Source of the DNA: Candidatus Hodarchaeota archaeon
Lineage (GTDB): Archaea > Asgardarchaeota > Heimdallarchaeia > Hodarchaeales > Hodarchaeaceae
DNA length: 13,095 nt
Assembly: GCA_016840035.1 (NCBI GenBank)
Contig: JAEOTC010000224.1
Location: 1 to 13,095 of the forward strand
Reading direction: 5' to 3'
Shown here: positions 181-13,095 of the stretch, piece by piece
How the letters are laid out: every line of letters starts with the position of its first letter
How positions within the stretch are numbered: position 1 is the stretch's first letter
Position numbers and translations under genes: made by a program
The notes under the pieces: model-generated
Seen by the model: only the letters and a program-made list of their open reading frames with translations
Databases searched by the model: none
What the model was told of the DNA's origin: nothing

Positions 181-477
181 GTGGTAATTATTGCCACCAT
201 TGTGATTATTATAGTTTTTCATGAATTATTGCTACAAAAGGTCTTAGAAAGTGAGAAAACTGGAAAAGGAAAAAGGATTATAGGTATGGTAATTATTACT
301 TCAATTTTCTGGATTATTGCTTTTATTCCGTTGATGATGGGTTATTTCTATATGTTAAACTACGGTTTTGCAATATCTTCTCCGATGTTTTTTTTTCCAA
401 CTGTGCTTTTTCTCTTCAGAACATTTCTTGTTTGTCTTGGGGCAGGTATTGGCTATTCTTTTACCTTTGGCAGGTAA
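181..477 (+). CDS. Small hypothetical membrane protein (about 3 TM helices)
   Basis: 98-aa ORF with GTG start and AGGAG just upstream; three hydrophobic segments. Its 3' end is duplicated at 1459-1539. Confidence 0.65.
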   Translation: MVIIATIVIIIVFHELLLQKVLESEKTGKGKRIIGMVIITSIFWIIAFIPLMMGYFYMLNYGFAISSPMFFFPTVLFLFRTFLVCLGAGIGYSFTFGR

Positions 478-487
478 ATTAACGATT
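407..487 (+). repeat. 81-bp direct repeat, copy 1 (3' end of ORF 181-477)
   Basis: 75/81 identical to 1459-1539 by manual alignment, ungapped. Confidence 0.95.
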
Positions 488-583
488 CTCGATATCATAT
501 AATACAAAGCCAAGATTGTCTTACTATTAAAAAAGTGAATCTTACCAATAGCTTTTTACAATTGAATTTTTTAGGACTAGCCT

Positions 584-1426
584 ATGAAAAAGATTAACTC
601 ACATATCATGTATGGTACTGCTTGGAAAGAAGATAAAACAGAACGATTAACCTTAAATGCACTCATGGCAGGATTTAACTCTATCGATACTGCTAATCAA
701 CGTAAACACTATAATGAAGAAGGGGTGGGAAAGGCCCTACATGCATTTATCAAATCAACAGGAGCAGACCGAGAGGAATTCTTTATTCAAACGAAATTTA
801 CTTACAAAGAAGGTCAAGATCACCGTTTGCCTTTTGATCCTCAAGCAGAACCAGCGACCCAAGTAAAACAGTCCTTTTCCAGTTCATTAGGCCATCTACA
901 AATCGATTATATCGACTCATACGTGTTACATGGGCCCTCCACACGTTTTGGACTATCTGAACGTGATTACCAGGTTTGGACAACGATGGAAGAATTACTC
1001 TCGGAAGGAAAGGTTAACTATTTGGGTATTAGTAATGTTAATGCTGAACAGCTGAATTTTTTGTTTGAAAAGGTAGAGATTAAACCGTCTTTTGTCCAAA
1101 ATCGTTGTTTTGCGAGATTTGGATGGGATAAGGAAATTCGTGAGATATGCAAAAACAATAATATCATTTATCAAGGATTCTCATTACTAACCGCCAATAG
1201 AGAGGTATTAACCCATCCTAGAGTGATACAAATGAGTAAAACAATGAATAAAACAATCCCACAAATAATTTTTAGTTTTGCTAGACAAATTGGTATTTTA
1301 CCGTTAACAGGAACAACAAATCGGAAACATATGGAAGAAGACCTCGAAAGTGTCGATATTACGCTGACAAAAGAACAAGTAAACAGTCTTACGAATATTT
1401 CAACGAGAAAAAGTTCTAGTTTCTAG
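584..1426 (+). CDS. Aldo/keto reductase family oxidoreductase
   Basis: MYGTAW start, IDTANQRKHY (catalytic D and Y), IQTKF (K), YVLHGP (H), LGISNV, QNR, YQGFSLL; 280 aa fits the AKR TIM barrel. Confidence 0.93.
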   Translation: MKKINSHIMYGTAWKEDKTERLTLNALMAGFNSIDTANQRKHYNEEGVGKALHAFIKSTGADREEFFIQTKFTYKEGQDHRLPFDPQAEPATQVKQSFSSSLGHLQIDYIDSYVLHGPSTRFGLSERDYQVWTTMEELLSEGKVNYLGISNVNAEQLNFLFEKVEIKPSFVQNRCFARFGWDKEIREICKNNNIIYQGFSLLTANREVLTHPRVIQMSKTMNKTIPQIIFSFARQIGILPLTGTTNRKHMEEDLESVDITLTKEQVNSLTNISTRKSSSF

Positions 1427-1458
1427 TTTCTCTTCTAAGAATCAAGATAAAACAGAGT

Positions 1459-1539
1459 TTTTTCTCTTCGGAGCATTTCTTGTTTGTCTTGGGGTAGGTA
1501 TTGGCTATTCTTTTACATTTGGTACGTAAATTAACGATT
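1459..1539 (+). pseudogene. 81-bp direct repeat, copy 2: orphan 3' remnant of a paralog of ORF 181-477
   Basis: Encodes FLFGAFLVCLGVGIGYSFTFGT* versus FLFRTFLVCLGAGIGYSFTFGR* in copy 1. The rest of the gene is absent upstream. Confidence 0.8.
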
Positions 1540-1671: not shown

Positions 1672-2841
1672 TTATTTTAGAGATCTCTTCTTATTATTAA
1701 TATGTAGCACTATCAGCCCTAGTGTGGGTACAACTACTACTAACTCCATACTAGATGTGTTAGTAGGTGCTGGAGTTGTATCAGGGGAAGTGGTTGGATC
1801 GTTAGATGTCGTGACAGGAGTTGTAGTCTCTACTGAATTTATAATCTCTAAGAATTTCGTCTCAAAAGCAGATCGATCTGCATCAATTGCAACCCGAGCA
1901 TTAATTGGTTCTCCTTCAATAAGCACAGTTTCACCTTCATGATTTTCTTTATCAAGGACAACTTCTAAATGAAAATCTTGGATTGTTACTACTTCAATAT
2001 TGGTGAGCGCAACTGCTGCTAGAATGTCCCAAAAATATAATCCAGGTATTAAAAACTGGTGGGTAATATCAGCTTCAGGGGTGAGTTTCACCTGTCCTAG
2101 ATTTTCTTTAAATTCTTCAGTGATAGGAACCTTATTTGTAGCATCTAAGGGAATAAGCAAGATGGGAATGTCAGAAGTGAGGATTGTATTTACTGCATGA
2201 GGGTCAATATAAAAATTCCATTCAGCCTCATAATTAGGAATATCCGATTCAATTCCCACATTACCAGGTACATTTACTGCACCACCCATAATATCTAATA
2301 ATTCAATCTTGCCAATAATTGAAGGATCAGATTGAATCGCCAACGCAACGTTAGTAAGTGGACCTAATGCAACAATCGTAATATTTTCAGGAGAGGAATT
2401 AACTATAGAAACAATTAATTCTGAAGCATTAAGGTCAGAAACTTTGTTTTCAGTATGTGGTAAGTCGAAACCATAAAAATTATAACTCCCTTGTCTCCAA
2501 GGAGTGGGAAAAGTGTGATTTGTAACTAATGGTGTTTCCTTTCCTGCCGCAACAGGGATATCTTCATACCCCAAATGACTTAGTAGTTTTACAAAATTAG
2601 TAGCTCCCTCTTCTACATAACTTACGCCACAGGAGAGAGTTAATGCACGAACAGATACTCTTGGGTGTTTAAGGAGATACAAAATTGCATAAACATCATC
2701 TGGAGCACCATCGGAATCAATAATTACCGAAATTGTTTCCAGTTCTTGAATAAAAAGTCCTGTTGATACAATAAGATTATTTAGAAGGATGCAGACAAAA
2801 ACTAATGATAAATGAAATGTTTTATTTGATTTCCTCCACAT
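1672..2841 (-). CDS. Inosine/uridine-preferring nucleoside hydrolase family protein with N-terminal signal/TM and C-terminal Thr-rich linker plus membrane anchor
   Basis: DSDGAPDD (DxDxxxDD Ca-binding motif), ALGPLTNVA, IMGGA, AEWNFYIDPHA, PLDAT, FWDILAA. Hydrophobic N-terminus; C-terminal TTTPVTTSNDPTTSPDTT linker, hydrophobic helix and KKRSLK tail. Confidence 0.92.
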   Translation of the reverse strand: MWRKSNKTFHLSLVFVCILLNNLIVSTGLFIQELETISVIIDSDGAPDDVYAILYLLKHPRVSVRALTLSCGVSYVEEGATNFVKLLSHLGYEDIPVAAGKETPLVTNHTFPTPWRQGSYNFYGFDLPHTENKVSDLNASELIVSIVNSSPENITIVALGPLTNVALAIQSDPSIIGKIELLDIMGGAVNVPGNVGIESDIPNYEAEWNFYIDPHAVNTILTSDIPILLIPLDATNKVPITEEFKENLGQVKLTPEADITHQFLIPGLYFWDILAAVALTNIEVVTIQDFHLEVVLDKENHEGETVLIEGEPINARVAIDADRSAFETKFLEIINSVETTTPVTTSNDPTTSPDTTPAPTNTSSMELVVVVPTLGLIVLHINNKKRSLK

Positions 2842-2924
2842 TGAAATAAACTCCGCATTAAGGAGATTTAAAACCTTTATTAAATTAACGTAAATTTCTA
2901 TATATATTCATATCTATGGATAAG

Positions 2925-2952
2925 CATTCGTAAATGGCTGGTTCGATACTTA
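2925..2952 (+). repeat. dif-like intergenic site (spacer GGCTGG)
   Basis: CATTCGTAAAT GGCTGG TTCGATACTTA; matches the site family at 4213, 6480, 9157 and 12352. Confidence 0.7.
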
Positions 2953-3187
2953 GATGTGGAATAACCTTCTCAATTGCAAAAATCTGTATAACTCCGGTAA
3001 TTAGACCAAAATAATAATTTAGATTATTTGGATAATTTTTCTATGTCTTTAAAACCCCCGTAAAAAATATGACTATAGTCAGGGTATTCCTCATATCATT
3101 CTGATATGTCATTTAATAAGCTTCATTTAAACAAAAAATTCGTTTAAATCTAATTTGATCTCTAATCCAAATTCCTTAAAATTAATT

Positions 3188-3215
3188 ATGTCATCAAACC
3201 AGCCTTAATAGAAAA
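3188..3215. repeat. dif-like intergenic site with inverted spacer (CCAGCC)
   Basis: ATGTCATCAAA CCAGCC TTAATAGAAAA; first 21 nt are 19/21 identical to 12954-12974; spacer is the reverse complement of GGCTGG. Confidence 0.75.
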
Positions 3216-3319
3216 CCATTAATGAACTTCCAGAAAATTACCACTTCAGTTTGCTATTCTAAAAATTAATTCATTCGGCCTAGTAGTATTGAAGAATTAT
3301 CAAAAAACTTAGATTTGTC

Positions 3320-3832
3320 TCAGATCTTCTCCAAATCTTTTATTATCCTGGAATATAATTTTATAGACATTCTGAAGTCTGTTTTAGTGGTTAAGTGGGT
3401 AAGCAGATTCTGACATTCATTCTTGGAGATCAGATCATGTTTTATACTCCTAAGTAGAATTCCTACTGTTCCAGTAATAACAAATCCCATTGCACGAGCG
3501 ATCTCTCTTGTCGCTAGATCATCAAGAATGACGATAGTGTTATCTCCCTGCAGACTTAATTCTTTAGCAAGAACTAAGACACTGGCTTCCCCTTTATGGA
3601 CGTTCAATTGCTCTAATTTGTCCATCAGTGAATTTGTTTGAGATTTTTTTGTTATTAACCAAGAGCTGAATGCTTCTTCTATTATTACTCTTTCTGGTGC
3701 GGTTTCTAATCTTAATACTTCACTCTTAACAAGATCTGTCGTATACACCTTCTTGAAAATCTTTGGAAGTAAGTCAAGCTTCCCAAGTTTTCCTAAGTAG
3801 ATCAAAGGAGAAGCACTAGTGATTCCTAGCAA
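3320..3832 (-). CDS. PIN-domain protein, DUF3368-like (putative toxin)
   Basis: SASPLIYLGKLGKLDLL, VKSEV, HKGEAS, ILDDLATREIARAMG, ITGTVGIL, FRMS are characteristic of DUF3368/COG2405-type PIN proteins; TTG start 4 nt after the partner gene's stop. Confidence 0.88.
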   Translation of the reverse strand: MLGITSASPLIYLGKLGKLDLLPKIFKKVYTTDLVKSEVLRLETAPERVIIEEAFSSWLITKKSQTNSLMDKLEQLNVHKGEASVLVLAKELSLQGDNTIVILDDLATREIARAMGFVITGTVGILLRSIKHDLISKNECQNLLTHLTTKTDFRMSIKLYSRIIKDLEKI

Positions 3833-3836
3833 GAAT

Positions 3837-4136
3837 CTACCCCAAAATAAAATTCAAATCCTCTTCATAACCTGATTCGGTATAAGTAGTAATATCTCTT
3901 TTGGATAGCTCATTTTGAAATGCTCTTAGAGAAATTTGAGCAATTTCCGCCGATTTCCAGACACTTATTCGTTTTTCTTTAACTTCTTCACAAAGAAAGG
4001 TGATTAAATCATCTTTAATTGCCTTGTCGAGAAGCTGACGAATGTAAGCAGATTTATCTTTTATCTTACGTTGTTTCATCAGATATTCAAGCTGTTTTTC
4101 TAAATCCTCGTCTAAGCGAACTGAAAGCACGCCCAT
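3837..4136 (-). CDS. UPF0175-family antitoxin with N-terminal ribbon-helix-helix
   Basis: VLSVRLDEDLEKQLE...DKSAYIRQLL (RHH) plus ISVWKSAEIAQISLRAFQNELSKRDI (UPF0175-type HTH); directly upstream of the PIN gene. Confidence 0.85.
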   Translation of the reverse strand: MGVLSVRLDEDLEKQLEYLMKQRKIKDKSAYIRQLLDKAIKDDLITFLCEEVKEKRISVWKSAEIAQISLRAFQNELSKRDITTYTESGYEEDLNFILG

Positions 4137-4212
4137 TTAAATCGAGTATACATAGTCATATCTAGTATATAAAATTAATGATGAATTTTGACCACATTGA
4201 AGAAAAAAAACA

Positions 4213-4240
4213 ACTTCGTAAAAGGCTGGTTTAGATTTCA
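4213..4240 (+). repeat. dif-like intergenic site (spacer GGCTGG)
   Basis: ACTTCGTAAAA GGCTGG TTTAGATTTCA; 4211-4249 is 35/39 identical to 9155-9193. Confidence 0.9.
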
Positions 4241-4293
4241 TAAGTATATATCGAGGTAAATACTACATTTCCAATCTAGGTTTACGAATATGG

Positions 4294-4509
4294 CTAATCA
4301 TCCTGTTCAAAGAAAAAAATTTCCTCAATTGGTGTTTTGAAAACCTTTGCTATGTTATACGCTAATTTAAGAGAGGGATTATATTTTCCTTTCTCCAAGA
4401 ATACTATAGTTTCCCTTCTCACACCTACCTTATCTGCAAGTTCCTTCTGAGTTAGGTTATACCTTGCTCTTAACTCTTTAATCCGGGTTTTCATGGATTT
4501 TCCGCTCAT
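4294..4509 (-). CDS. XRE/Cro-family helix-turn-helix transcriptional regulator
   Basis: [57 protein letters not shown] is a classic HTH_3. ATGA overlap with the upstream stop; alternative start at 4494. Confidence 0.95.
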
Positions 4510-4925
4510 CCTCTCTGCTCATACCAATAATACAGAAAATATTGCAAAGAAACCCCTACTGCGATAATAGGACCAGTTAAAGCAACAAAAGACATATTAT
4601 TTACGAGATTCATTGCATTTAGTACGATCAGAACCATTAGAGAGATATAAAGGAATCTAAAACTCCAATCTGTAGCCTTTAACCTATTAGTTATTGATCT
4701 CTCATCGTGACTGATGATTGAGACGTTTTCTTGTCTTCGTTTGAACTCCCTGAATGAATAGAGTAAGAGCGAAGTTCCAATGATGATAATCAATCCGTTC
4801 AATAAAATTTCAGTAGGGGTTTCACTTGTATAAACCCCTAGGCCTCCCATTAAAATTAAAACTCCACCTATTAGAATAGGAATTACTAATGGAAAAGTTT
4901 TTTGTTTGAGAACTTCCGATGCCAT
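4506..4925 (-). CDS. DUF2178-like membrane protein
   Basis: Four TM segments with a central DERS..NRLKA..WSF motif; this family commonly sits next to XRE regulators. Confidence 0.75.
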
Positions 4926-4937
4926 ATTCTTTAACCC

Positions 4938-5633
4938 CTAAACACTAAGTACTAACCTCTCTCTGTTAAACCATTTTTTTGATATATAATAAGCCCCACC
5001 TGTTAAGATCGTAATAATAAAGGATAACAATATCCCATGTAACATCGAACTAATGCCAAGAAATTCTTTCAGGAATATAGAAATCAAGAAAACAATAAAG
5101 AGTCCACCCATCGGCATTAAGACAGCTCCTCCATTCTCTGCAATTGCTGGGAATCTTAATGTTCCTAGAATAAAGATAAAAGTTGTGAATATCACTGAAA
5201 GTGGTCCAATTAAAAAAATTAACAGTAATATTGAAACAGCTACATCATCCACAAAAATAAGCACTATCACCGAGAGAAATGCTTCTACCAGTAATCCTAC
5301 AATGATACACGCCATGCTTTTACCAAGAAAAATCTCCCCTTCTGAGATAGGAGCTACAAGGATTGATTTAATTGTCTTCCATCTAATTTCGTTAATGAAA
5401 GTATGTATTCCGACAAGAGTCGTAATCATAACTGGAATAACTAGAAAAAACATTAAGCTTATGTATTCAGTCCTGGGTTCAGACTGATTCATAACTTCTA
5501 GTAATTGAGGAACAAATACTAGTATTGGTATTCCTATGGCAAGTAACATTGGCAGAACAACACTCTTTGACCCAAATCGTGTCCTTAACTCCTTCTTACA
5601 AATTTCTATCTCTACCTCAACCATGATTCTCAC
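4938..5633 (-). CDS. ABC-2 type transporter permease
   Basis: About 6 TM helices; EIRWKTIKSILVAPISEGEIFLGK motif; overlaps the ATPase stop. True start may be 5624. Confidence 0.88.
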   Translation of the reverse strand: MRIMVEVEIEICKKELRTRFGSKSVVLPMLLAIGIPILVFVPQLLEVMNQSEPRTEYISLMFFLVIPVMITTLVGIHTFINEIRWKTIKSILVAPISEGEIFLGKSMACIIVGLLVEAFLSVIVLIFVDDVAVSILLLIFLIGPLSVIFTTFIFILGTLRFPAIAENGGAVLMPMGGLFIVFLISIFLKEFLGISSMLHGILLSFIITILTGGAYYISKKWFNRERLVLSV

Positions 5634-6342
5634 CTATCACTGCAAAATAAACATCTTCTAGTGTCGTGGTTTTCAATTCAGACTTAATTTCAGCTATTTT
5701 TCCTACACAAAGAATTTCACCCTCACTTATGAGTGCTACAGAATCACAAACCTTTTCTGCTCTAGCTAAGAGATGTGTTGTCATTAGTATCGTTTTACCA
5801 TCTTTTTTCAGTTCAGTTATCATGTCTAAAACTTCTTTTGCTATCATAGGGTCAAGACCAGATGTAGGTTCATCTAAAAAAAGAATCTTTGGATTATGAA
5901 TCATAGCTTTTGCCAAACTGACTTTTTGTTTAGTTCCTTTGGAAAGGGTTGAAACTTGCGCATTTTTCTTTTCCCATATATCGAGAAACTCAAGCAATTC
6001 CTCAATTCTAACTTTTCTTTCATTCTTACTGATTTTATACAATCCCCCGAAAAAATTAAGGTTTTGAATAATTGTTAAACTTGGATATAGTCCGAAATCC
6101 TCTGGTAAGTAACCTATCAAACGCCTGATCTTTATTCCCTCTTTTGTGACATCATATCCAGCTACTATAGCTTTACCAGAAGTCGGTACTAACAGTGTTG
6201 ATAATATATTCACAGTAGTAGTCTTTCCAGCACCATTAGGACCAAGAAAAGCAAAAACTTCTCCTTCCTCAACTTTGAAACTGATATCATTTACTGCAGA
6301 TATGCCATTAAATTCTTTTATTAGATTTCTGACTTTGATCAT
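5617..6342 (-). CDS. ABC exporter ATP-binding protein (multidrug/ABC-2 type)
   Basis: Walker A GPNGAGKTT, signature LSKGTKQK, Walker B LFLDEPTSGLDP, H-loop TTH. Confidence 0.96.
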   Translation of the reverse strand: MIKVRNLIKEFNGISAVNDISFKVEEGEVFAFLGPNGAGKTTTVNILSTLLVPTSGKAIVAGYDVTKEGIKIRRLIGYLPEDFGLYPSLTIIQNLNFFGGLYKISKNERKVRIEELLEFLDIWEKKNAQVSTLSKGTKQKVSLAKAMIHNPKILFLDEPTSGLDPMIAKEVLDMITELKKDGKTILMTTHLLARAEKVCDSVALISEGEILCVGKIAEIKSELKTTTLEDVYFAVIGENHG

Positions 6343-6352
6343 TTCTTCTCAC

Positions 6353-6393
6353 ATGATAATTATTTCTAACATCATGTTATATATTTCTAACAT
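6353..6393 (-). promoter_or_regulatory. Two tandem 20-bp palindromic operators upstream of the ABC operon
   Basis: ATGATAATTATTTCTAACAT (6353-6372) and ATGTTATATATTTCTAACAT (6374-6393): ATGTTA-N8-TAACAT with 21-bp period, just downstream of a TATA-like TTTTAAG (about 6397-6403, minus strand). Confidence 0.7.
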
Positions 6394-6479
6394 TAACTTA
6401 AAAGAATGATGATTTCGGAAGAAATCAACACAAATTCAATTGATATTGCATAATGAAATAACGAAATAAGGGAGAGTGA

Positions 6480-6507
6480 ACATCGTAAAAGGCTGGATTA
6501 ATACCTT
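6480..6507 (+). repeat. dif-like intergenic site (spacer GGCTGG)
   Basis: ACATCGTAAAA GGCTGG ATTAATACCTT. Confidence 0.85.
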
Positions 6508-6587
6508 TAAGAATAAATCTGTTGAATAACTGACTGATTCTGATGTATCTACTTAATTTGAGTTTTTATTAAAGAATTCCCAAAATT

Positions 6588-7697
6588 CTAGTTAACTCTA
6601 TTCCTTGTTTCTCGGTACCAATAAAAGGGAAGAATTAATCCAACAACAAGAGTAACTGCAATTAAAAAAAGCTGTAGACTTATATCACGCGGAAAACCAG
6701 TATATAAGGGTTCTAAATGTTCATCAAGGATGATCAATCGCTTGTCTTGATCTGCAAGAAAAATTTTCTTATCATTCCAATAAATATCGTGCGGAGCTGC
6801 GCTACTATATTCTGAAATTTCTTTTGGGTGCGAGGGGTCTGTGATATTTAGGACATATACTCCTTTTTGTAAATCAGCAACGTAAAGATGAGTAGTGTTT
6901 CCAGTAACACCATAAGCTTCCCCTCCAAGTTTATAATATTTTCCAAGCTGAATAGGGGAATGGGGAGTGGAAACATCAAAAATATAGACTCCATGTCTAT
7001 GACATCCTAAGAAAAGCAAATCATTATGAATGTAAACATCAATCGCACCATGTGTTAATAGAGAAGTCGATACTAATTTAGGCGAAGATGGATCTGTTAC
7101 ATTAAGTACTTTAAGGCCCCTACCTGAATCTGGAAGGTAGATGAAGTTATCCTTTATCGCAACACCACGAAATACTCCTCCATCATCGTATTCTGTGACT
7201 TTAATAATATCATCAGGGGTAGAAATATCAAATATTTCCATACCTTGAGGATATTCAGTGACATACGCATAAGAACCATTAGTACATACTGAATGGGCAC
7301 TTCCGCCATCATTATATTGATCTGTGATCAAAGGATTCTCTGGATCACTTATATTAGCAATAATAAAACCATTACTATCGCTTGCAATATATACGAGGTC
7401 GTCCTTTACTGTTACACCAAACGCTCCGTCACTAGTAGCTACAATCCCGATTTTTCTAGGATTTACAGGGTTACTGATATCTAGAATCACTGTTCCGTCG
7501 TTAGTTGTAACAAAAACATGATTATCTTCAACACACACACTATACGCTACATTAGCCCCTAGACCAACTTGTGGTAAAACGATAACAACCAAAATATCCA
7601 GAAATATTAGAGTTACAAGAACCAAAAAATAAATAACTTTTAGAGTTCTATTTATTTTAGTATTAGTGAACAGTTTATTCAAATGAACCACCTTCAA
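6588..7697 (-). CDS. LVIVD-repeat (beta-propeller) membrane-anchored protein
   Basis: About seven ~41-aa repeats such as VYIASDSNGFIIANISDPENP, IYLPDSGRGLKVLNVTDPSSP and LYVADLQKGVYVLNITDPSHP; N- and C-terminal TM helices; TTG start uncertain. Confidence 0.88.
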   Translation of the reverse strand: MKVVHLNKLFTNTKINRTLKVIYFLVLVTLIFLDILVVIVLPQVGLGANVAYSVCVEDNHVFVTTNDGTVILDISNPVNPRKIGIVATSDGAFGVTVKDDLVYIASDSNGFIIANISDPENPLITDQYNDGGSAHSVCTNGSYAYVTEYPQGMEIFDISTPDDIIKVTEYDDGGVFRGVAIKDNFIYLPDSGRGLKVLNVTDPSSPKLVSTSLLTHGAIDVYIHNDLLFLGCHRHGVYIFDVSTPHSPIQLGKYYKLGGEAYGVTGNTTHLYVADLQKGVYVLNITDPSHPKEISEYSSAAPHDIYWNDKKIFLADQDKRLIILDEHLEPLYTGFPRDISLQLFLIAVTLVVGLILPFYWYRETRNRVN

Positions 7698-7902
7698 TCG
7701 GTTTGAAAGATTGATAGGTGTCTTGACTTTTGTATCAGATTTAATGTTTTAGACCCTTCCAAAAATGGAAGAATCTTAGTTCGACCAGATAATGAAAATC
7801 CACTCATAAAAAACTCTATATCATTATTTCATGAATTCAACCTGGTTAGTCACAACTAAATTAATCACATTATCCAAACAAAAAAAAAATAAACTAAATA
7901 TC

Positions 7903-8688
7903 CTAAAATATTGACATATTAATACTTTGTTGATTATTTCTTTCCTTCAGATGGGCTATTGTAATATTGAGCGCATTTTTTAGATTCATAAGGAAAACAA
8001 ATCCCTTCTCTGTAACTTTGAAGTTCTTCAAACGAGTATCTAACATAACAACGTCTGACAGATATGTTTCTAGGTAATTTAGGGTCACTAATTTTTTGAT
8101 TTGTCTAGAAAGGGTCGAAGGAGGGATATTAAGACTTTTAGAGAGTTTAGTTGGGTTTGTTTCAGTGGGATCCTGGTAAGCGATTTCAATTAATGTAAAT
8201 ATAGTGTTATTTCTAATTTTTGTTTGTAATTCTTGTTTAATCTCCGATGGGAAAAAATCTAACATTGTACTCGGTGTGGAAAAATTAGTAAGAAGATGAA
8301 TATCTTGAAATTTTAAAGTGGTGGTATTTTGTATGTTTTCTAATCCAATAGTAATTTTATTTCTTATAATTTTCAGGAATTCAACTTCACTTGACGGAAA
8401 TAGGGTATTAATATTACTATTATTTTGATTTTTATATTTTGAGCGATAATACCTTGCTATAATGACTGTGAATGTGATTATAAAGAGTAATATTACCAAG
8501 AACGTCGTTAAAAAACTAAAAAGTCCTTTTTGTTCTTTTAATGGTAATTCAGGTTTAATATTTGAAGTCAATCCTTGAAAAAAGAGAATTAATGTCACCA
8601 GTATTAAAACGCTGATGCTAATTATCTGAAACCCTTTTTTCATATTCAATGTAGGTAATGATGATTGATTCGGCATCAGGAAGCACAC
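7903..8688 (-). CDS. Membrane-tethered winged helix-turn-helix protein (MarR/ArsR-like)
   Basis: Two N-terminal hydrophobic helices; C-terminal TNPTKLSKSLNIPPSTLSRQIKKLVTLNYLE...DTRLKNFKVTEKG (MarR-type HTH and wing). Start may be 8676 or 8643. Confidence 0.8.
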   Translation of the reverse strand: MCFLMPNQSSLPTLNMKKGFQIISISVLILVTLILFFQGLTSNIKPELPLKEQKGLFSFLTTFLVILLFIITFTVIIARYYRSKYKNQNNSNINTLFPSSEVEFLKIIRNKITIGLENIQNTTTLKFQDIHLLTNFSTPSTMLDFFPSEIKQELQTKIRNNTIFTLIEIAYQDPTETNPTKLSKSLNIPPSTLSRQIKKLVTLNYLETYLSDVVMLDTRLKNFKVTEKGFVFLMNLKNALNITIAHLKERNNQQSINMSIF

Positions 8689-9014
8689 ATCATTGTTTAT
8701 CTATTCTTTGATTCCAATATTGCATTGAACTATTACTATAAAAGTTAGAATAAGAGTGCAATACATTTGAATACAGAACTAAACGTTTTTGTAAAAGGAG
8801 ATTTTTTTTCTATATCGATAGTTCAGCTTCTTCCCGTTATGTTAATCAAGTAGATGCATCGTGCTCAATTATTTTCTTTTCTCAACCTGTTTTTTACGAT
8901 ATTTTAGGGATTGCTCCAGAATTTGATCCCTGTTTTGGATATTTAATAGCTAGGATTATCATTGAATACCATAATCTCACAGACCCTAAATTAATTAAAA
9001 ACAAACCGCCAAAA

Positions 9015-9042
9015 ATGTTGTCTATGGCTGGATAAATGTATA
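9015..9042 (+). repeat. Degenerate dif-like site (spacer GGCTGG)
   Basis: ATGTTGTCTAT GGCTGG ATAAATGTATA; left arm 8/11 identical to the 12954 arm. Confidence 0.5.
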
Positions 9043-9060
9043 TTTCTAGGTATATTCATC

Positions 9061-9093
9061 TATATGTTGACGTAAAACTTGTATTTTATCCAA
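9061..9093 (+). repeat. 33-bp repeat containing a dif-like site with spacer CTTGTA
   Basis: 31/33 identical to 12979-13011; core TTGACGTAAAA CTTGTA TTTTATCCAAG. Confidence 0.9.
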
Positions 9094-9156
9094 GAAGCAA
9101 TAAAAAATGGGTAATTATACAGTAAAGTCGATACTATTCTAGATTCTTATCCACCA

Positions 9157-9184
9157 ACTCCGTCAAAGGCTGGTTTAGATTACA
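9157..9184 (+). repeat. dif-like intergenic site (spacer GGCTGG)
   Basis: ACTCCGTCAAA GGCTGG TTTAGATTACA; 9156-9173 is identical to 12351-12368. Confidence 0.9.
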
Positions 9185-9368
9185 AAAGTATATGGTATAT
9201 ACAGATGTAAATCACCATTAGAAAAAATAGATTAATTATAAAGTGCTTACACCTTCTGTTGATCTGGATCGAATATAGCGTTTTGAGGAGGTTCGATTAA
9301 GCAGATCTATCTTCACTCCAGAGTTTACCTCAGAAATACAACCTGCTGCGATTGGAAAATCTGAACAA

Positions 9369-11567
9369 TCAGGATAGAATCTTTCTTAGGCGCTTTCTTC
9401 TGACAAACAACACTCCTAAAGTGATTATAATTATTATTCCTAAGAATCCTGAGGTTTGTTGGGATGTCGATAAAATTGTAGTAGAGGTGGAGTCTACGGC
9501 AGTAGATAGAGTTGAACTTGAGTCACTTGTTGATAGAGGTTCTGGAAATGTTTGTAAAACCACCTCTGAAAACGACCCTTCACCGTTTTCATTCAGAGCT
9601 GTTACCATATAATAATACGTTATATCAGCCTGTCCACTGCCATCGAAGAACGTGGTTCCTAATGCTATACCGATAAGCATGTATTCATCTGGAGCTATTC
9701 CTCTGTACACGTTATAGCGCAGGATTTCAGACCCTCCATTGGCTTGAGGCTCTATCCAACTTAATCGAACACCAGCTCCACTTACGACAGCTTCCAGATT
9801 CTCTGGTGAGCTTGGTACTGAATATTGATTTGTCTCAAATGGGTTAGTTAACAACGGATTGGGATCATAGTATATTAAACCACTGATTCGATAATAAGAG
9901 CCTGCTAGATCCGACCAATAGTTACCTTCCCCAGTCACGATATCATACCAGTAAACTTGAGGATCCGCAACGATAAGATCCACAATTTTTGCTTGGGAGG
10001 GGTACATAGCTGTAAACTTGTTGTCAATGAATGCATTGTGATGGACATGGAGTTCTTTTGGTCTTTCACATGTAATTCCATGGAAAGAATTATTAATTAT
10101 TTGATTATACATAATCCTACATTCGGTTATTCCGTAGATCATAATGCCTGTGTTGGAATTATTAAATACTAGATTATGAGTGACTATAATACTGTCATCA
10201 TCAAAATCTGAAGCAAAGTACATACCAGCGGAATTCGATGCACAGGTATTATTCACAATGACAACATTTATGGGATAATAAACATTAATTCCATAGTAAG
10301 AATTTCCTTCAAGATGATTGCTACTTATGACAACCTCCTCTAAATTTCCTCCATGTATTCCGTATCTGTTCTTGATGAAAGTATTGTTGTGTAAGAAGAT
10401 ATCCATTGAGCTGCTAATCTGAATCCCGTAAAGTTCATTTGAATAGATAGTACTATTGATCAGCTTACATTGATAAGAATTGTAAATCACGATTCCTCCA
10501 TAGCTATTTTCACTACAAATGCTATTACTAATCTTTATATCAGTGATTCTATGTATAGTGATCCCTATTATTGTATTTGAGCAATAAAAATTCTCAATAG
10601 TAATATTCCATGCATTAACCACAATGATTTGACCATAGGCAGAGGAAAGCTGCTGATGGTTTTCTCCGTTAGAGAAATATAAGGGCAAATCATTTACTGT
10701 GTTATTTACAATTGTAAAATTATTCAGTTCGTCAATAGCAGTAACTAGAAGGGCAAGACCCCCATTTTCAAATGAATTGTTTATGATAGTCGCATTATGA
10801 GAGTTTTGATAGATACTTGCGTTACTGAACTGGTTCTCACGATATGTAATATTGACAGACTCCCCTCCAGTGCTTATCCCATATAAAGAACTGTTTGAAA
10901 GACTGTTCTCTTGAATGATCAACGAGCTAGAATGGGCAACATTGAGCCCGAGCCTGTTTACATCAAACGTACACCCTTTAATGGTGATAAAATCAGAATA
11001 AAGGAGATTTAACGCTGTGTCGTGATCCGTGAAGTTGGAAGCCCTGATGTCGATAACTGTGCTTGAAGTGGAATATATTCCAACGAAATTATTCGCAAAA
11101 ATGTTTTCATCCATATTCATAAATCTACTATCTAGTATATTTATACCATAATCTAATTCCTGAAAAGTATTATTATAAATGGTCCCATAACTATTATTCA
11201 CTGAATCAATATATATTCCAGTACCTCCTGAAATCCCTTGAAATAAACAATTTTGTATCACGAAATAGGTATCATTCACATTGGTAATATTTATACAGGG
11301 AACGGAGTTATTAATAAATCTATAATCTTCGATATAGAACGGATCCCCGGATGATCCATCTCCTCTGGATGCATATGTTGCAAAACCACTTTTATCCGTT
11401 ATTTCAATTGGATCATGGTCTTCATAGTCATTTATAGAAAATATGGAAGGAATCCTTTGAGGAGCGTTATTAAAATCTTCTTGTTCAAGGGGTACATACT
11501 TAACTGAAATAGTAGCTAGTAATCCGATTATTAAGGACAGAATAATGAATTTTGTAACTTTTTCCAA
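9369..11567 (-). CDS. Cell-surface protein: right-handed parallel beta-helix (NosD-like) repeats, fibronectin type III domain, Ser/Thr linker and C-terminal sorting/TM anchor
   Basis: Signal-like N-terminus; HDPIEI...GDGSSGDPFYIE; many N..GI repeats; GNYWSD; PSSPENL...VRLSW..P..NGGS.I..YNVYRG...YYYMVTALN..GEG (FN3); STSDSSST linker; SGF, hydrophobic helix and RRKR tail. Confidence 0.9.
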   Translation of the reverse strand: MEKVTKFIILSLIIGLLATISVKYVPLEQEDFNNAPQRIPSIFSINDYEDHDPIEITDKSGFATYASRGDGSSGDPFYIEDYRFINNSVPCINITNVNDTYFVIQNCLFQGISGGTGIYIDSVNNSYGTIYNNTFQELDYGINILDSRFMNMDENIFANNFVGIYSTSSTVIDIRASNFTDHDTALNLLYSDFITIKGCTFDVNRLGLNVAHSSSLIIQENSLSNSSLYGISTGGESVNITYRENQFSNASIYQNSHNATIINNSFENGGLALLVTAIDELNNFTIVNNTVNDLPLYFSNGENHQQLSSAYGQIIVVNAWNITIENFYCSNTIIGITIHRITDIKISNSICSENSYGGIVIYNSYQCKLINSTIYSNELYGIQISSSMDIFLHNNTFIKNRYGIHGGNLEEVVISSNHLEGNSYYGINVYYPINVVIVNNTCASNSAGMYFASDFDDDSIIVTHNLVFNNSNTGIMIYGITECRIMYNQIINNSFHGITCERPKELHVHHNAFIDNKFTAMYPSQAKIVDLIVADPQVYWYDIVTGEGNYWSDLAGSYYRISGLIYYDPNPLLTNPFETNQYSVPSSPENLEAVVSGAGVRLSWIEPQANGGSEILRYNVYRGIAPDEYMLIGIALGTTFFDGSGQADITYYYMVTALNENGEGSFSEVVLQTFPEPLSTSDSSSTLSTAVDSTSTTILSTSQQTSGFLGIIIIITLGVLFVRRKRLRKILS

Positions 11568-11817
11568 ACCTTTTACACCAACTCAAATACTTTTTACTAC
11601 TTTCATGGAATATCATATATTGGGAATTCAAGCTTTTTAGATTAACCAATTCGGGGAAAATTTTGAAATACTGAAACTCTATAGGATATGAATCAAGGGA
11701 AAGTATAAACAATCCAGAAGGCTAAGAAAGATGATATTAAACGTCATCCTCCACAAATGATTATACCAAGAGATCTGTACTTGTTGTTGGAAAAGGGGTT
11801 AAATTCCATCTAGAAAT

Positions 11818-12186
11818 CTATTGAGCTATGATAAGAACTATTTGAACTATTGAAAAGACTAATGTGCTTGTAAGGATGGAGTAGGAAGTTTTTGTTGTAA
11901 ATTCCGCTCGGTTTTTCACCTTGATGAAATACATATGAATACCAAATGCCCCGATGCCTGTAAAACTTAGAATAATTGCGAAAATTAAGCCGAGAACTGA
12001 TTGTTTATAGACTTCAACGAGGCCCATCATGAAGAAGGGAAGAATAGGAATATGAAAAAGTAAAAATCCAGTGATATCACCAGGTAGATTAAAAAGTTTC
12101 CATTCCTGCCAGTAAGCTGAATCTATTTCATGAAGAATCAAGAGAGTAGCAGTTATAAGATAATTGAAGAACAAAAGATTATACAT
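11818..12186 (-). CDS. DUF6713-like membrane protein
   Basis: LLILHEIDSAYWQEWKLFNLPG..GFLLFHIP motif recognised from memory; 4 TM helices with conserved-looking His residues. Confidence 0.75.
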   Translation of the reverse strand: MYNLLFFNYLITATLLILHEIDSAYWQEWKLFNLPGDITGFLLFHIPILPFFMMGLVEVYKQSVLGLIFAIILSFTGIGAFGIHMYFIKVKNRAEFTTKTSYSILTSTLVFSIVQIVLIIAQ

Positions 12187-12351
12187 CTAAGTTAAACCTT
12201 CCTAAGCATTGAGTATCCCCGTTTGAATTTATATCTCAGTATACAGTGTGTTCACTATATTACTCAAATTAGGAAAAAACCTCAGCCTCCACCATATTTG
12301 AGAAAGGGATTTTGCAGATAAATAGATAACTCTATTAGTGCAATTATCTGA

Positions 12352-12379
12352 ACTCCGTCAAAGGCTGGATTAACTCCAA
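12352..12379 (+). repeat. dif-like intergenic site (spacer GGCTGG)
   Basis: ACTCCGTCAAA GGCTGG ATTAACTCCAA. Confidence 0.9.
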
Positions 12380-12449
12380 TAAAAAACTATAAAGATCTTC
12401 CCTGGGATATTTGGACTAGACTCATTTCTTTTACGAAATTTAAGTTCAT

Positions 12450-12839
12450 TTATTTAGTGGTATTTGGCGAAATCCTAATAACTATAGCCTTAGATCTCTT
12501 ATAACATTTTGGACATTTTAAATACTTCCAACCACCTCTTAAATTTAGTCCATGGGGACTAAGAAGATCCGATAAAAAAGAAATTCGAAATTCGTGTCCA
12601 CAAATTTCGCATTTATAGGCAAAATTCTGTTTATGCCAATTAACAAGAAGAATAATTGTAAATAATACAACTACAATCAAAATCATAAACCAGACTAACC
12701 AAAAGTCAGGAAATATCAATAATAGAACAACGAAAAATAGTATAACTATAATAAAATAACTTAATAGTCCAAAAATGATTTTTATCTGATTCGTGTTGAT
12801 TATAGATAAATTCCTTTCTAGTTCCTTATCTTCTGACAT
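12450..12839 (-). CDS. Membrane protein with C-terminal zinc ribbon
   Basis: Two TM helices followed by YKCEICGHEF...KYLKCPKC (two CxxC pairs). Confidence 0.8.
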   Translation of the reverse strand: MSEDKELERNLSIINTNQIKIIFGLLSYFIIVILFFVVLLLIFPDFWLVWFMILIVVVLFTIILLVNWHKQNFAYKCEICGHEFRISFLSDLLSPHGLNLRGGWKYLKCPKCYKRSKAIVIRISPNTTK

Positions 12840-12953
12840 ACAAATTCCTCTTAAATAAATTTGATTGAGTTAATATTATTAGTTTATAGTTATTTAACTA
12901 ATTAAAATCTATTGTTCAATAAATGTAAGAAAACAGAACTTTTTATATAAAAA

Positions 12954-12981
12954 ATGTCGTCAAACCAACCTTAACGTATAT
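12954..12981. repeat. dif-like site with inverted spacer (CCAACC)
   Basis: ATGTCGTCAAA CCAACC TTAACGTATAT; near-copy of the 3188 site. Confidence 0.75.
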
Positions 12982-13011
12982 ATGTTGTCGTAAAACTTGT
13001 ATTTAATCCAA
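12979..13011 (+). repeat. 33-bp repeat containing a dif-like site with spacer CTTGTA
   Basis: Core TTGTCGTAAAA CTTGTA TTTAATCCAAA; 31/33 identical to 9061-9093. Confidence 0.9.
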
Positions 13012-13095
13012 ACAAGGCTAGTTTGAATCAATTGATTCTTCATTATTAGATTAGAGGAAACTGAACCACCACATAGAGAAGGATACTAAAACTAA

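Follow-up and report, generated by a model that had tools for sequence, protein, structure and literature searches.

An Asgard archaeal gene array that looks like integron-style shuffling at a one-directional 28-base site without an integrase of its own

The window analyzed here is an entire 13,095-bp contig (contig C206 of the metagenome-assembled genome, or MAG, that we call G000) from an Asgard archaeon of the genus Hodarchaeum. It looks like a series of unrelated gene packets joined at a conserved, one-directional 28-base recombination-type site, in an arrangement that suggests integron-like shuffling without an integrase of its own. Five principal copies of the site begin at positions 2925, 4213, 6480, 9157 and 12352, with exactly the letters given in an earlier note made from the sequence alone. 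That note read the window as an integron-like or dif-module system, and our analysis supports it in part: the gene units, their recurrence in other genomes and the breaks in homology at the sites all stand, whereas the symmetry of the arms and their likeness to pdif sites were overstated.

G000 spans 4.3 Mb in 293 contigs, with 36% GC and an estimated completeness of 87%. We compared it within a set of 22 Hodarchaeum genomes (G000 included) and against 61 outgroup genomes from 17 other genera of the same class. Among 185,579 species genomes, 24 of the 25 exact matches are Hodarchaeota or 'Heimdallarchaeota' MAGs, in agreement with the Asgard host that had been proposed. The gene run of the window (1672-12839) comprises 12 open reading frames (ORFs), every one on the minus strand; the Pfam families represented are mutually unrelated, so the cargo is as heterogeneous as the note had it. 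New here are the division of the right arms into three types, a second spacer class and the recognition that the left arm is the half-site of a wider palindrome family.

Anatomy, orientation and distribution of the site

The site opens with a conserved 11-bp left arm, A, that reads ACTYCGTMAAA, ACTCCGTCCAT or rTGTCGTAAAA and is followed by the GC-rich 6-bp center GGCTGG. The right arm is of one of three types. T1 (TTTAGATwrsAAAAGTATATAC-n4-GTATATAC) is a 40-bp extension, often a perfect 20-bp palindrome, and occurs in the window at 4213 and 9157; T2 (ATTAACACY) occurs at 6480 and 12352; and T3 is a 65-bp element with the inner core CGTAAAA-CTTGTA-TTTwATCC, found at 9026-9091 and in part at 12975-13009. 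The 11-6-11 geometry described earlier fits these sites, but the inverted-repeat symmetry of the arms is weak, with four of six inner bases matching in T2 (GTAAAA against GTTAAT) and three of six in T1. The claimed likeness to pdif and loxP arms was likewise too strong; it is a short resemblance.

GGCTGG or its complement CCAGCC is found seven times in the window against 1.30 expected, a number that none of 200 shuffles reaches, and all seven copies lie between ORFs, as had been noticed by eye. A repeat search assigned four of the five principal sites to one family. When sites are defined loosely, 46 of 53 fall outside ORFs of at least 90 amino acids, though 75% of the sequence is coding, and they are spaced at a median of 1.5 kb (range 73-4944 bp). 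The sites are strictly co-oriented, with 36 of 37 neighboring pairs on one contig pointing in the same direction. The orientation of the cargo is looser than the earlier note supposed: all genes of the window lie on the minus strand, but in the arrays of sister genomes the gene next to the right arm runs opposite to the site in 25 cases and with it in 16, a weak bias.

Within the class, the site is restricted to one genus. The 17-mer core CGTMAAAGGCTGGWTTA is present in 16 of the 22 Hodarchaeum genomes and in none of the 61 outgroup genomes, with reversed-pattern controls all at zero, and it additionally occurs in 17 metagenome contig stretches from the Joint Genome Institute (JGI). Array-bearing genomes hold 3-16 copies. 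Inside G000, the 13-mer CGTMAAWGGCTGG (CGT[AC]AA[AT]GGCTGG) has nine copies, five in the window, three on C220 and one on C82, and an nhmmer model built from 38 T1 sites finds matches on nine short contigs only (C220, C206, C256, C50, C211, C8, C4, C200 and C82). Contigs frequently end close to sites; this is probably mere assembly breakage at the 55-bp repeat, and we have not used it as evidence of heterogeneity.

A search of the 22 genomes for arm A plus T1 with the spacer left free recovered 98 sites among the matches listed, in 17 genomes (controls, zero), and in most of them the spacer is GGCTGG or one base removed from it. Spacers of a second class, CGCACA, are found in G000 (C4, C200 and C211), G004 (C26), G014 (C144 and C128), G020 (C142) and G012 (C39). 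Of the contigs with several sites, about 18 belong to the GGCTGG class and five to the CGCACA class, and none is mixed, while the arms are the same in both. That the two spacers never share a contig fits enzymes that require identical overlaps, unlike a regulatory motif.

The sites are not attC sites, because single-strand DNA folds of four of them are no better than those of shuffled sequences (z from -1.3 to +1.3) and the attC box GTTRRRY is not found in them, the sequence there reading GGTTTAGA. Scans of the window against Rfam and for tRNA genes gave zero matches.

Arm A is also the half-site of a genus-wide family of 9-6-9 perfect palindromes. Sequences of the form GTCGTCAAA-N6-TTTGACGAC (at most two mismatches) number 2-9 per genome in 21 of the 22 genomes, and their centers are locus-specific and conserved between species. 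Judged from the sequence, this 9-6-9 geometry is that of a single-recombinase Xer site. G000 has nine such palindromes (C82:265, C176:139, C179:1749, C228:24590, C87:24433, C104:40011, C25:10822, C8:5487 and C114:48874), of which that on C82 has a GGCTGG center. Seven are intergenic, in a mixture of promoter-like and terminator-like positions, and two lie inside ORFs of about 185 amino acids that may be paralogues. The palindrome at C25:10822 is syntenic with differently centered palindromes in G001 and G015 and marks a break in synteny; the flank of the window's nucleoside hydrolase has no homology to that G001/G015 locus, which corresponds to C25 instead.

Two candidates for the chromosomal dif were set aside. 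GTCGTCAAA-GTCTTG-TTTGACGAC occurs once per genome in at least ten genomes, but inside a conserved gene of about 185 codons, and the CTTGTA core is present only in G000 (twice) and G001. Fragments of the 3' end of 23S rRNA in G002 and G014, considered as a related repeat, have no GGCTGG site beside them and are a different element; in G002, two copies of the last ~300 nt of the 23S rRNA lie 9 kb apart (C65:3498-3825 and 12431-12734).

Modules of the window and their exchange between species

Copies of five window modules, 91-94% identical, are present in G002, G012, G019 and G020, in each case beside different neighbors. The synteny comparison suggested by the earlier note thus finds the modules in new surroundings in sister species and homology interrupted at sites, and the sites do bound self-contained gene units. 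Ten module ends could be tested, those of the five matched modules; M5 was left out, as it has no long match among the 21 other genomes of the genus. Seven of the ten ends (2941, 9031-9036, 3190, 4212, 4237, 12382 and 12941) lie within ~15 bp of a site, several of them exactly at the edge of the spacer.

The first module, M0 (1672-2941, minus strand), consists of an inosine-uridine nucleoside hydrolase gene (Pfam, 1e-58) with its promoter region and an A arm, and ends at the plus-strand site CATTCGTAAAT-GGCTGG-TTCGATACTTA (2925-2952). Its match in G019 (C135; 1819-2941, 92% identity) ends exactly after GGCTGG at 2941, where G019 goes on with the T2 arm ATTAACACC. M1 (3205-4229, minus strand) carries a DUF3368 PIN-like toxin (3320-3832) and a UPF0175/RHH antitoxin (3837-4136), both assigned by Pfam. 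The variant site at its left end (3188-3215, minus strand) does have the inverted spacer that had been reported, with the A-type arm GTCATCAAA at 3190-3198 and CCAGCC at 3199-3204. The corresponding module in G020 (C20:4723-5771; window 3190-4237, 91%) stands among other neighbors, starts at the A arm of the inverted site, where G020 reads GTCGTCAAA-CCAGCC, and ends inside the site at 4213.

That site is of type T1 (ACTTCGTAAAA-GGCTGG-TTTAGATTTCA with an AT-rich, palindrome-like extension; 4213-4264, plus strand; nhmmer E 2.5e-13, also found by the repeat search). It introduces M2 (4230-6496, minus strand), which by Pfam encodes an HTH_3 regulator (4294-4509), an unknown protein (4506-4925), an ABC-2 permease (4938-5633) and an ABC ATPase (5617-6342). 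The copy of this ABC module in G002 (C84; window 4212-6403, 92%) starts at the 4213 site and stops 77 bp before the 6480 site. Despite the 92% identity of the module, 4 of the 11 positions of the A arm, left of the spacer, are different in the two copies, as would be expected if the crossover took place in the spacer; by their sequence, the arms left of the spacer appear to belong to the left neighbor.

The T2 site at 6480-6507 (ACATCGTAAAA-GGCTGG-ATTAATACCTT, plus strand), whose right arm follows the ATTAACACY consensus across loci, precedes M3 (6497-9031, minus strand), with genes for an LVIVD-repeat protein (6588-7697) and a MarR-like winged-helix protein (7903-8688), again from Pfam. M3 matches G002 (C48; window 6609-9036, 93%) and, in part and at lower identity, G013, G010 and G021, with the right end of the match falling just after GGCTGG at 9026-9031. 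The two genes travel together in G002, G013 and G021. At 9015, a variant in the earlier note that proves real, the A arm of the window copy has decayed ahead of GGCTGG; the orthologous modules in G002 and G013 retain an intact ATGTCGTAAAA there and then have T2 arms.

This decayed arm, GGCTGG and a T3 element make up a gene-free unit recovered by the repeat search (9015-9094, plus strand), which contains a second core, TTGACGTAAAA-CTTGTA-TTTTATCC, at 9067-9094. The same T3 element is found in G019 (C116), G001 (C17) and G021 (C94). The T1 site that follows, ACTCCGTCAAA-GGCTGG-TTTAGATTACA and then AAAAGTATAT-GG-TATATAC (9157-9208, plus strand; nhmmer E 9.5e-13), is identical over 38 nt (100%) to a sequence in G019 (C179). 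Sites 9015, 9067 and 9157 all lie in a 680-bp gene-free gap, which also harbors an inverted A-type arm at 8892-8902 (TTTTACGATAT) with no adjoining GGCTGG.

M5 (9174-12368, minus strand) holds, by Pfam, a 732-aa beta-helix/NosD protein (9369-11567) and a DUF6713 protein (11818-12186). The earlier note had listed 7697/7903 and 11567/11818 as junctions lacking a clear site; there is indeed no site at either, but both are gaps inside modules (M3 and M5) rather than junctions. M5 is followed by the T2 site ACTCCGTCAAA-GGCTGG-ATTAACTCCAA (12352-12379, plus strand), as read from the sequence, and by M6 (12369-12970, minus strand), which encodes a 129-aa membrane protein (12450-12839) with weak, sub-threshold Pfam matches to zinc ribbons. 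The M6 match in G012 (C37; window 12382-12941, 94%) lies between the sites at 12352 and 12954, and 76 bp beyond it G012 has an A-GGCTAG-ATTACCACC site.

The contig closes with a plus-strand cluster (12954-13032) in three parts. From 12954 it reads ATGTCGTCAAA-CCAACC, a variant correctly reported and a single base off the inverted spacer; at 12985-13012 the repeat search finds GTCGTAAAA-CTTGTA-TTTAATCC, which with 9067 forms a 33-nt repeat (94% identical; core CGTAAAA-CTTGTA), so both of these variants hold; and at 13005-13032 the last reported variant is a weak one, with GGCTAG and a poor left arm.

At the other end of the window, a repeat search placed an aldo/keto-reductase gene (584-1426) between 89-nt direct repeats (399-487 and 1451-1539, 90% identical; unit 399-1539, plus strand). 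Both copies end in GTAAAT-TAACGA-TT and then diverge, and the left copy forms the genuine 3' end of the ORF at 181-477. From the sequence, this unit is possibly a module that entered at an A-arm site whose spacer is different again. Elsewhere, 'empty' cassettes occur in which a T1 site is followed only 73 bp on by A-GGCTGG-T2 (locus L123, 3870-3970; a Logan contig of run X3). Beside array sites we also observe a gelsolin-repeat ORF (L028, 9546-9902; G002:C84) and a Ras/Roc/Arf-type GTPase ORF (L003, 10893-11981; G000:C220), and paralogues of eukaryote-like genes may therefore travel as cargo.

Proposed mechanism and competing explanations

We propose that the window belongs to a chromosomal island where self-contained modules of 0.07-5 kb would be joined head to tail at an Xer-type core site, each module consisting of a right arm, its genes, mostly with their own intergenic upstream regions, and an A arm. 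Strand exchange would be catalyzed at the 6-bp overlap by a tyrosine recombinase whose gene lies elsewhere. Acting on two direct copies of the site, it would excise the module between them as a circle with one site, the circle could re-enter at any site of equal overlap, and CGCACA sites would constitute a second, separate compatibility class. The orthologue of XerA in the host is the leading candidate for the enzyme, and an accessory factor is probably bound by the long AT-rich T1 palindrome. The data show the build of the sites, their common orientation, their confinement to one genus, and modules exchanged between species with ends at sites; the chemistry of strand exchange, the circle and the identity of the enzyme are the parts of this scheme that we infer. 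That site-specific recombination by some enzyme is at work we regard as likely. By a small measure we favor the account in which this recombination is conservative, takes place at the 6-bp overlap and is carried out in trans by a tyrosine recombinase, for which XerA is the leading candidate. Only tentatively do we suggest that Hodarchaeum has no dedicated integrase at all and that housekeeping XerA acts on a family of 28-bp sites with the 6-bp overlap as address, in at least two classes (GGCTGG and CGCACA) plus the locus-specific palindromes, thereby building and reshuffling chromosomal cassette arrays.

XerA is the only tyrosine recombinase present in every genome searched for such enzymes: an orthologue is found in all ten, nine of them array-bearing, and that of G000 (on C174) scores 272.6 bits with NF040815 against a cut-off of 220. 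XerA of P. abyssi recombines dif in vitro and needs no partner protein (PMC2958812). The absence of a recombinase from the window, which the earlier note had remarked, is real and extends to the arrays on a 41-kb and a 61-kb contig, which have no PF00589 gene; their flanks encode Rce1-like, ICMT, RidA, PIN, methyltransferase, radical-SAM, gelsolin, DDE transposase, ABC and endonuclease V proteins. In metagenome loci, too, no homologue of the query XerA or of the second-class integrases stands beside the sites. We found no SSV-type integrase (PF16795) in the genome and, as to serine recombinases, only a resolvase fragment on C169.

Several observations weigh against recombination by XerA at these sites. 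Three of the ten tested module ends are far from any recognized site: 6403 and 6609 lie 77 and ~100 bp to either side of the 6480 site, and the left end of the M0 match (1819) falls inside the hydrolase gene. The arms are weakly symmetric, the right arm of T1 having little beyond TTT in common with arm A, and the 9-6-9 palindromes could serve as hairpins or operator sites instead. Identical junctions would result from homologous recombination in the 17 bp that the copies have in common, namely arm A and the spacer. The site is unlike the dif of P. abyssi, the sole archaeal dif with which we compared it. The stretch occurs in marine-sediment metagenomes; in the assembled contigs of four such runs from one study (Logan contigs, the only form searched), no excision circle or deletion junction of this locus was seen, and the joints 127->9156, 13007->9154, 9193->12344 and 9001->6483 come from further copies of the repeat or from the repeat in another context. 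Most arrays are on short contigs, and the MAGs are incomplete (completeness of G000, 87%), so that a dedicated integrase may be unassembled. Finally, one site in G021 is a neighbor of a different recombinase: on C94 (L109, 8799-10482), an A-GGTTGG-T3 site lies 380 bp upstream of a small ORF and the gene of a 296-aa tyrosine recombinase, in an integron-like geometry.

This last locus leads to the alternative that keeps layout and chemistry but assigns them to a dedicated integrase at an unassembled array head, of the integron-integrase kind or the kind found in G021, with XerA uninvolved. The short contigs that end near sites may lack just these heads, and, apart from G014, each genome searched encodes one or more tyrosine recombinases besides XerA. 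These extra enzymes, however, are scattered and only 25-50% identical to one another; the G021 protein is 26% identical to XerA, and its relatives in G010 and G012 have no site nearby. The second recombinase of G000, a divergent copy on C244, likewise has no adjoining sites. (Downstream of its gene, at L002, 1180-1400, are CCTGCA-rich repeats such as ATCCTGCAATGCCCTGCA and ATCCTGCAGTACCCTGCA, which may be its own att region.) In G014, which is 91% complete and has more than 15 sites, XerA is the sole tyrosine recombinase found, and the long array-bearing contigs described above hold no integrase. Ghaly et al. (2022) list an integron integrase (IntI) in Hodarchaeum sp003144275, together with a three-attC cluster of attC sites lacking integron-integrases (CALIN) (PMC9668308); this genome appears to be our G002, where both lie on contigs other than those that bear sites. 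Our only IntI-like match (TIGR02249-like, below the cut-off) is in G002, one of 22 genomes, with no sites beside it. A dedicated integrase seems to us unlikely.

According to a second alternative, which we judge unlikely, the repeat is primarily protein-binding, regulatory or terminator-like punctuation, and modules are shuffled by homologous recombination or gene conversion between its copies. Such exchange, too, would leave junctions where a shared repeat of 17-55 bp ends, and it would sit well with the two module ends 77-100 bp off a site and with arrays that lack a linked recombinase; moreover, T1 contains two TATA-like GTATATAC boxes, and the A arm also occurs in palindromes at promoter-like and terminator-like positions. 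The earlier note had named a genome-wide motif at a fixed distance from genes as the mark of a transcription-factor site. We find instead that the motif is local, missing from ~98% of the genome and from ordinary conserved genes, and that its distances vary from 77 to 469 bp to start codons and from 54 to 185 bp to stop codons. A regulatory site would not need strict co-orientation, the single-strand folds are not significant, and an invariant GC-rich 6-bp center in AT-rich arms, with two unmixed classes of center, fits matching overlaps rather than a protein-binding or terminator role.

That transposable or integrated elements account for the sites, as their ends or scars (ends of insertion sequences (IS) or of miniature inverted-repeat transposable elements (MITE), or attL/attR of tandem proviruses or plasmids), is highly improbable: the ~55-bp repeat is multicopy, breaks assemblies and lies in variable islands, and a DDE transposase stands ~2.3 kb from a site in G002 (C84), but all copies on a contig are direct, with no terminal inverted pairs, the 0.07-5-kb modules contain no integrase, transposase, replication or capsid genes, and the negative tRNA, Rfam, serine recombinase and SSV-type integrase searches all speak against it.

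Relation to known systems and biological meaning

The closest bacterial parallel to recombination by a host Xer protein is provided by the pdif modules of Acinetobacter plasmids, which are moved by host XerC/XerD and flanked by inversely oriented sites (PMC6449649). pdif sites are 28 bp long, in an 11-6-11 layout with partly palindromic inner arms (PMC6449649); the Hodarchaeum sites fit this layout, and their weakly symmetric inner arms may be comparable. In both systems, the recombinase is encoded neither inside nor beside the modules, and the Xer system that resolves the host chromosome is presumed to act; the modules are small, carry adaptive genes, toxin-antitoxin pairs and transporters, often lie on small contigs, and the same module is found in different contexts in different species. 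The differences are equally clear. pdif sites are inverted, whereas Hodarchaeum sites are direct and form long one-way arrays in which the toxin-antitoxin module alone has an inverted spacer (3188); pdif uses two recombinases, whereas each Hodarchaeum genome searched has one XerA orthologue; and pdif is bacterial and mostly plasmid-borne, whereas the Hodarchaeum system is archaeal and chromosomal. Most Hodarchaeum sites, moreover, have the ~40-bp conserved T1 extension, and two overlap classes coexist.

In integrons, attC sites are imperfect palindromes of 57-141 nt that fold as single strands and carry R''/L''-L'/R' boxes (RYYYAAC ... GTTRRRY), and CALINs do not require an adjoining IntI. Like integrons and CALINs, the Hodarchaeum arrays are one-way series of sites that separate heterogeneous cassettes, some common to several species and some 'empty'. 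The sites are homogeneous within the lineage, as are the VCRs (Vibrio cholerae repeats) of Vibrio, and most of the conserved site (T1) is at one end of a module, with a short arm at the other. Unlike integrons, the arrays have no IntI, and their sites are double-strand-type cores with no attC hairpin, R/L boxes or GTTRRRY. The integron elements reported in the sister genome are on contigs NJBF01000069 and NJBF01000090 (PMC9668308), whereas its GGCTGG sites are on NJBF01000094 and NJBF01000035. Integron cassettes are mostly single, promoterless, co-oriented genes, whereas Hodarchaeum modules have 1-4 genes in either orientation with upstream regions of 77-469 bp. The system works like pdif modules and integrons, yet fails defining features of both.

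Integrative mobile elements exploiting Xer (IMEX), such as the CTX/TLC/RS1 arrays of Vibrio cholerae, have no integrase of their own, use host Xer at dif and pile up in tandem, with hybrid dif-like sites that have one good and one poor arm. They are phages or plasmids with replication genes that insert at the single chromosomal dif. Hodarchaeum arrays resemble them as integrase-less tandem units separated by sites with unequal arms, but their units are plain gene modules, and many sites are found at several loci. Among archaeal Xer systems, the dif of P. abyssi reads ATTGGATATAA-TCGGCC-TTATATCTAAA, and Thermococcales dif has AT-rich conserved flanks proposed to bind a partner (PMC2958812). A single XerA, an 11-6-11 site with a GC-rich 6-bp center between AT-rich arms, and AT-rich flanks are features in common; however, dif is single per chromosome and has near-perfect inverted arms, whereas the Hodarchaeum site has dozens of copies, unequal arms and no positional similarity to dif. 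A 2021 review of archaeal tyrosine recombinases does not use the term IMEX and mentions integrons in general terms only (PMC8371274). In the literature that we searched, we found no description of such a system, and for Asgard genomes it contained only reports of classical integrons (PMC9668308). The sites are short and well defined, and hence open to binding and recombination assays and to searches for junctions in metagenomes.

No known archaea are more closely related to eukaryotes than the Asgard archaea of the order Hodarchaeales, whose genomes are large and contain many acquired and duplicated genes. The routes by which these arrive are poorly known. If our account is correct, the use of Xer sites as boundaries of mobile modules would extend from Acinetobacter plasmids to archaeal chromosomes, and the two spacers would be a case of overlap sequences that serve in nature as compatibility classes. 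The arrays would be an archaeal, integrase-less counterpart of integrons that also moves paralogues of eukaryote-like genes such as those for gelsolin and Ras-type GTPases, and a cassette system acting in trans would provide a concrete, testable route for the gain, loss and interspecies exchange of genes in Hodarchaeales.

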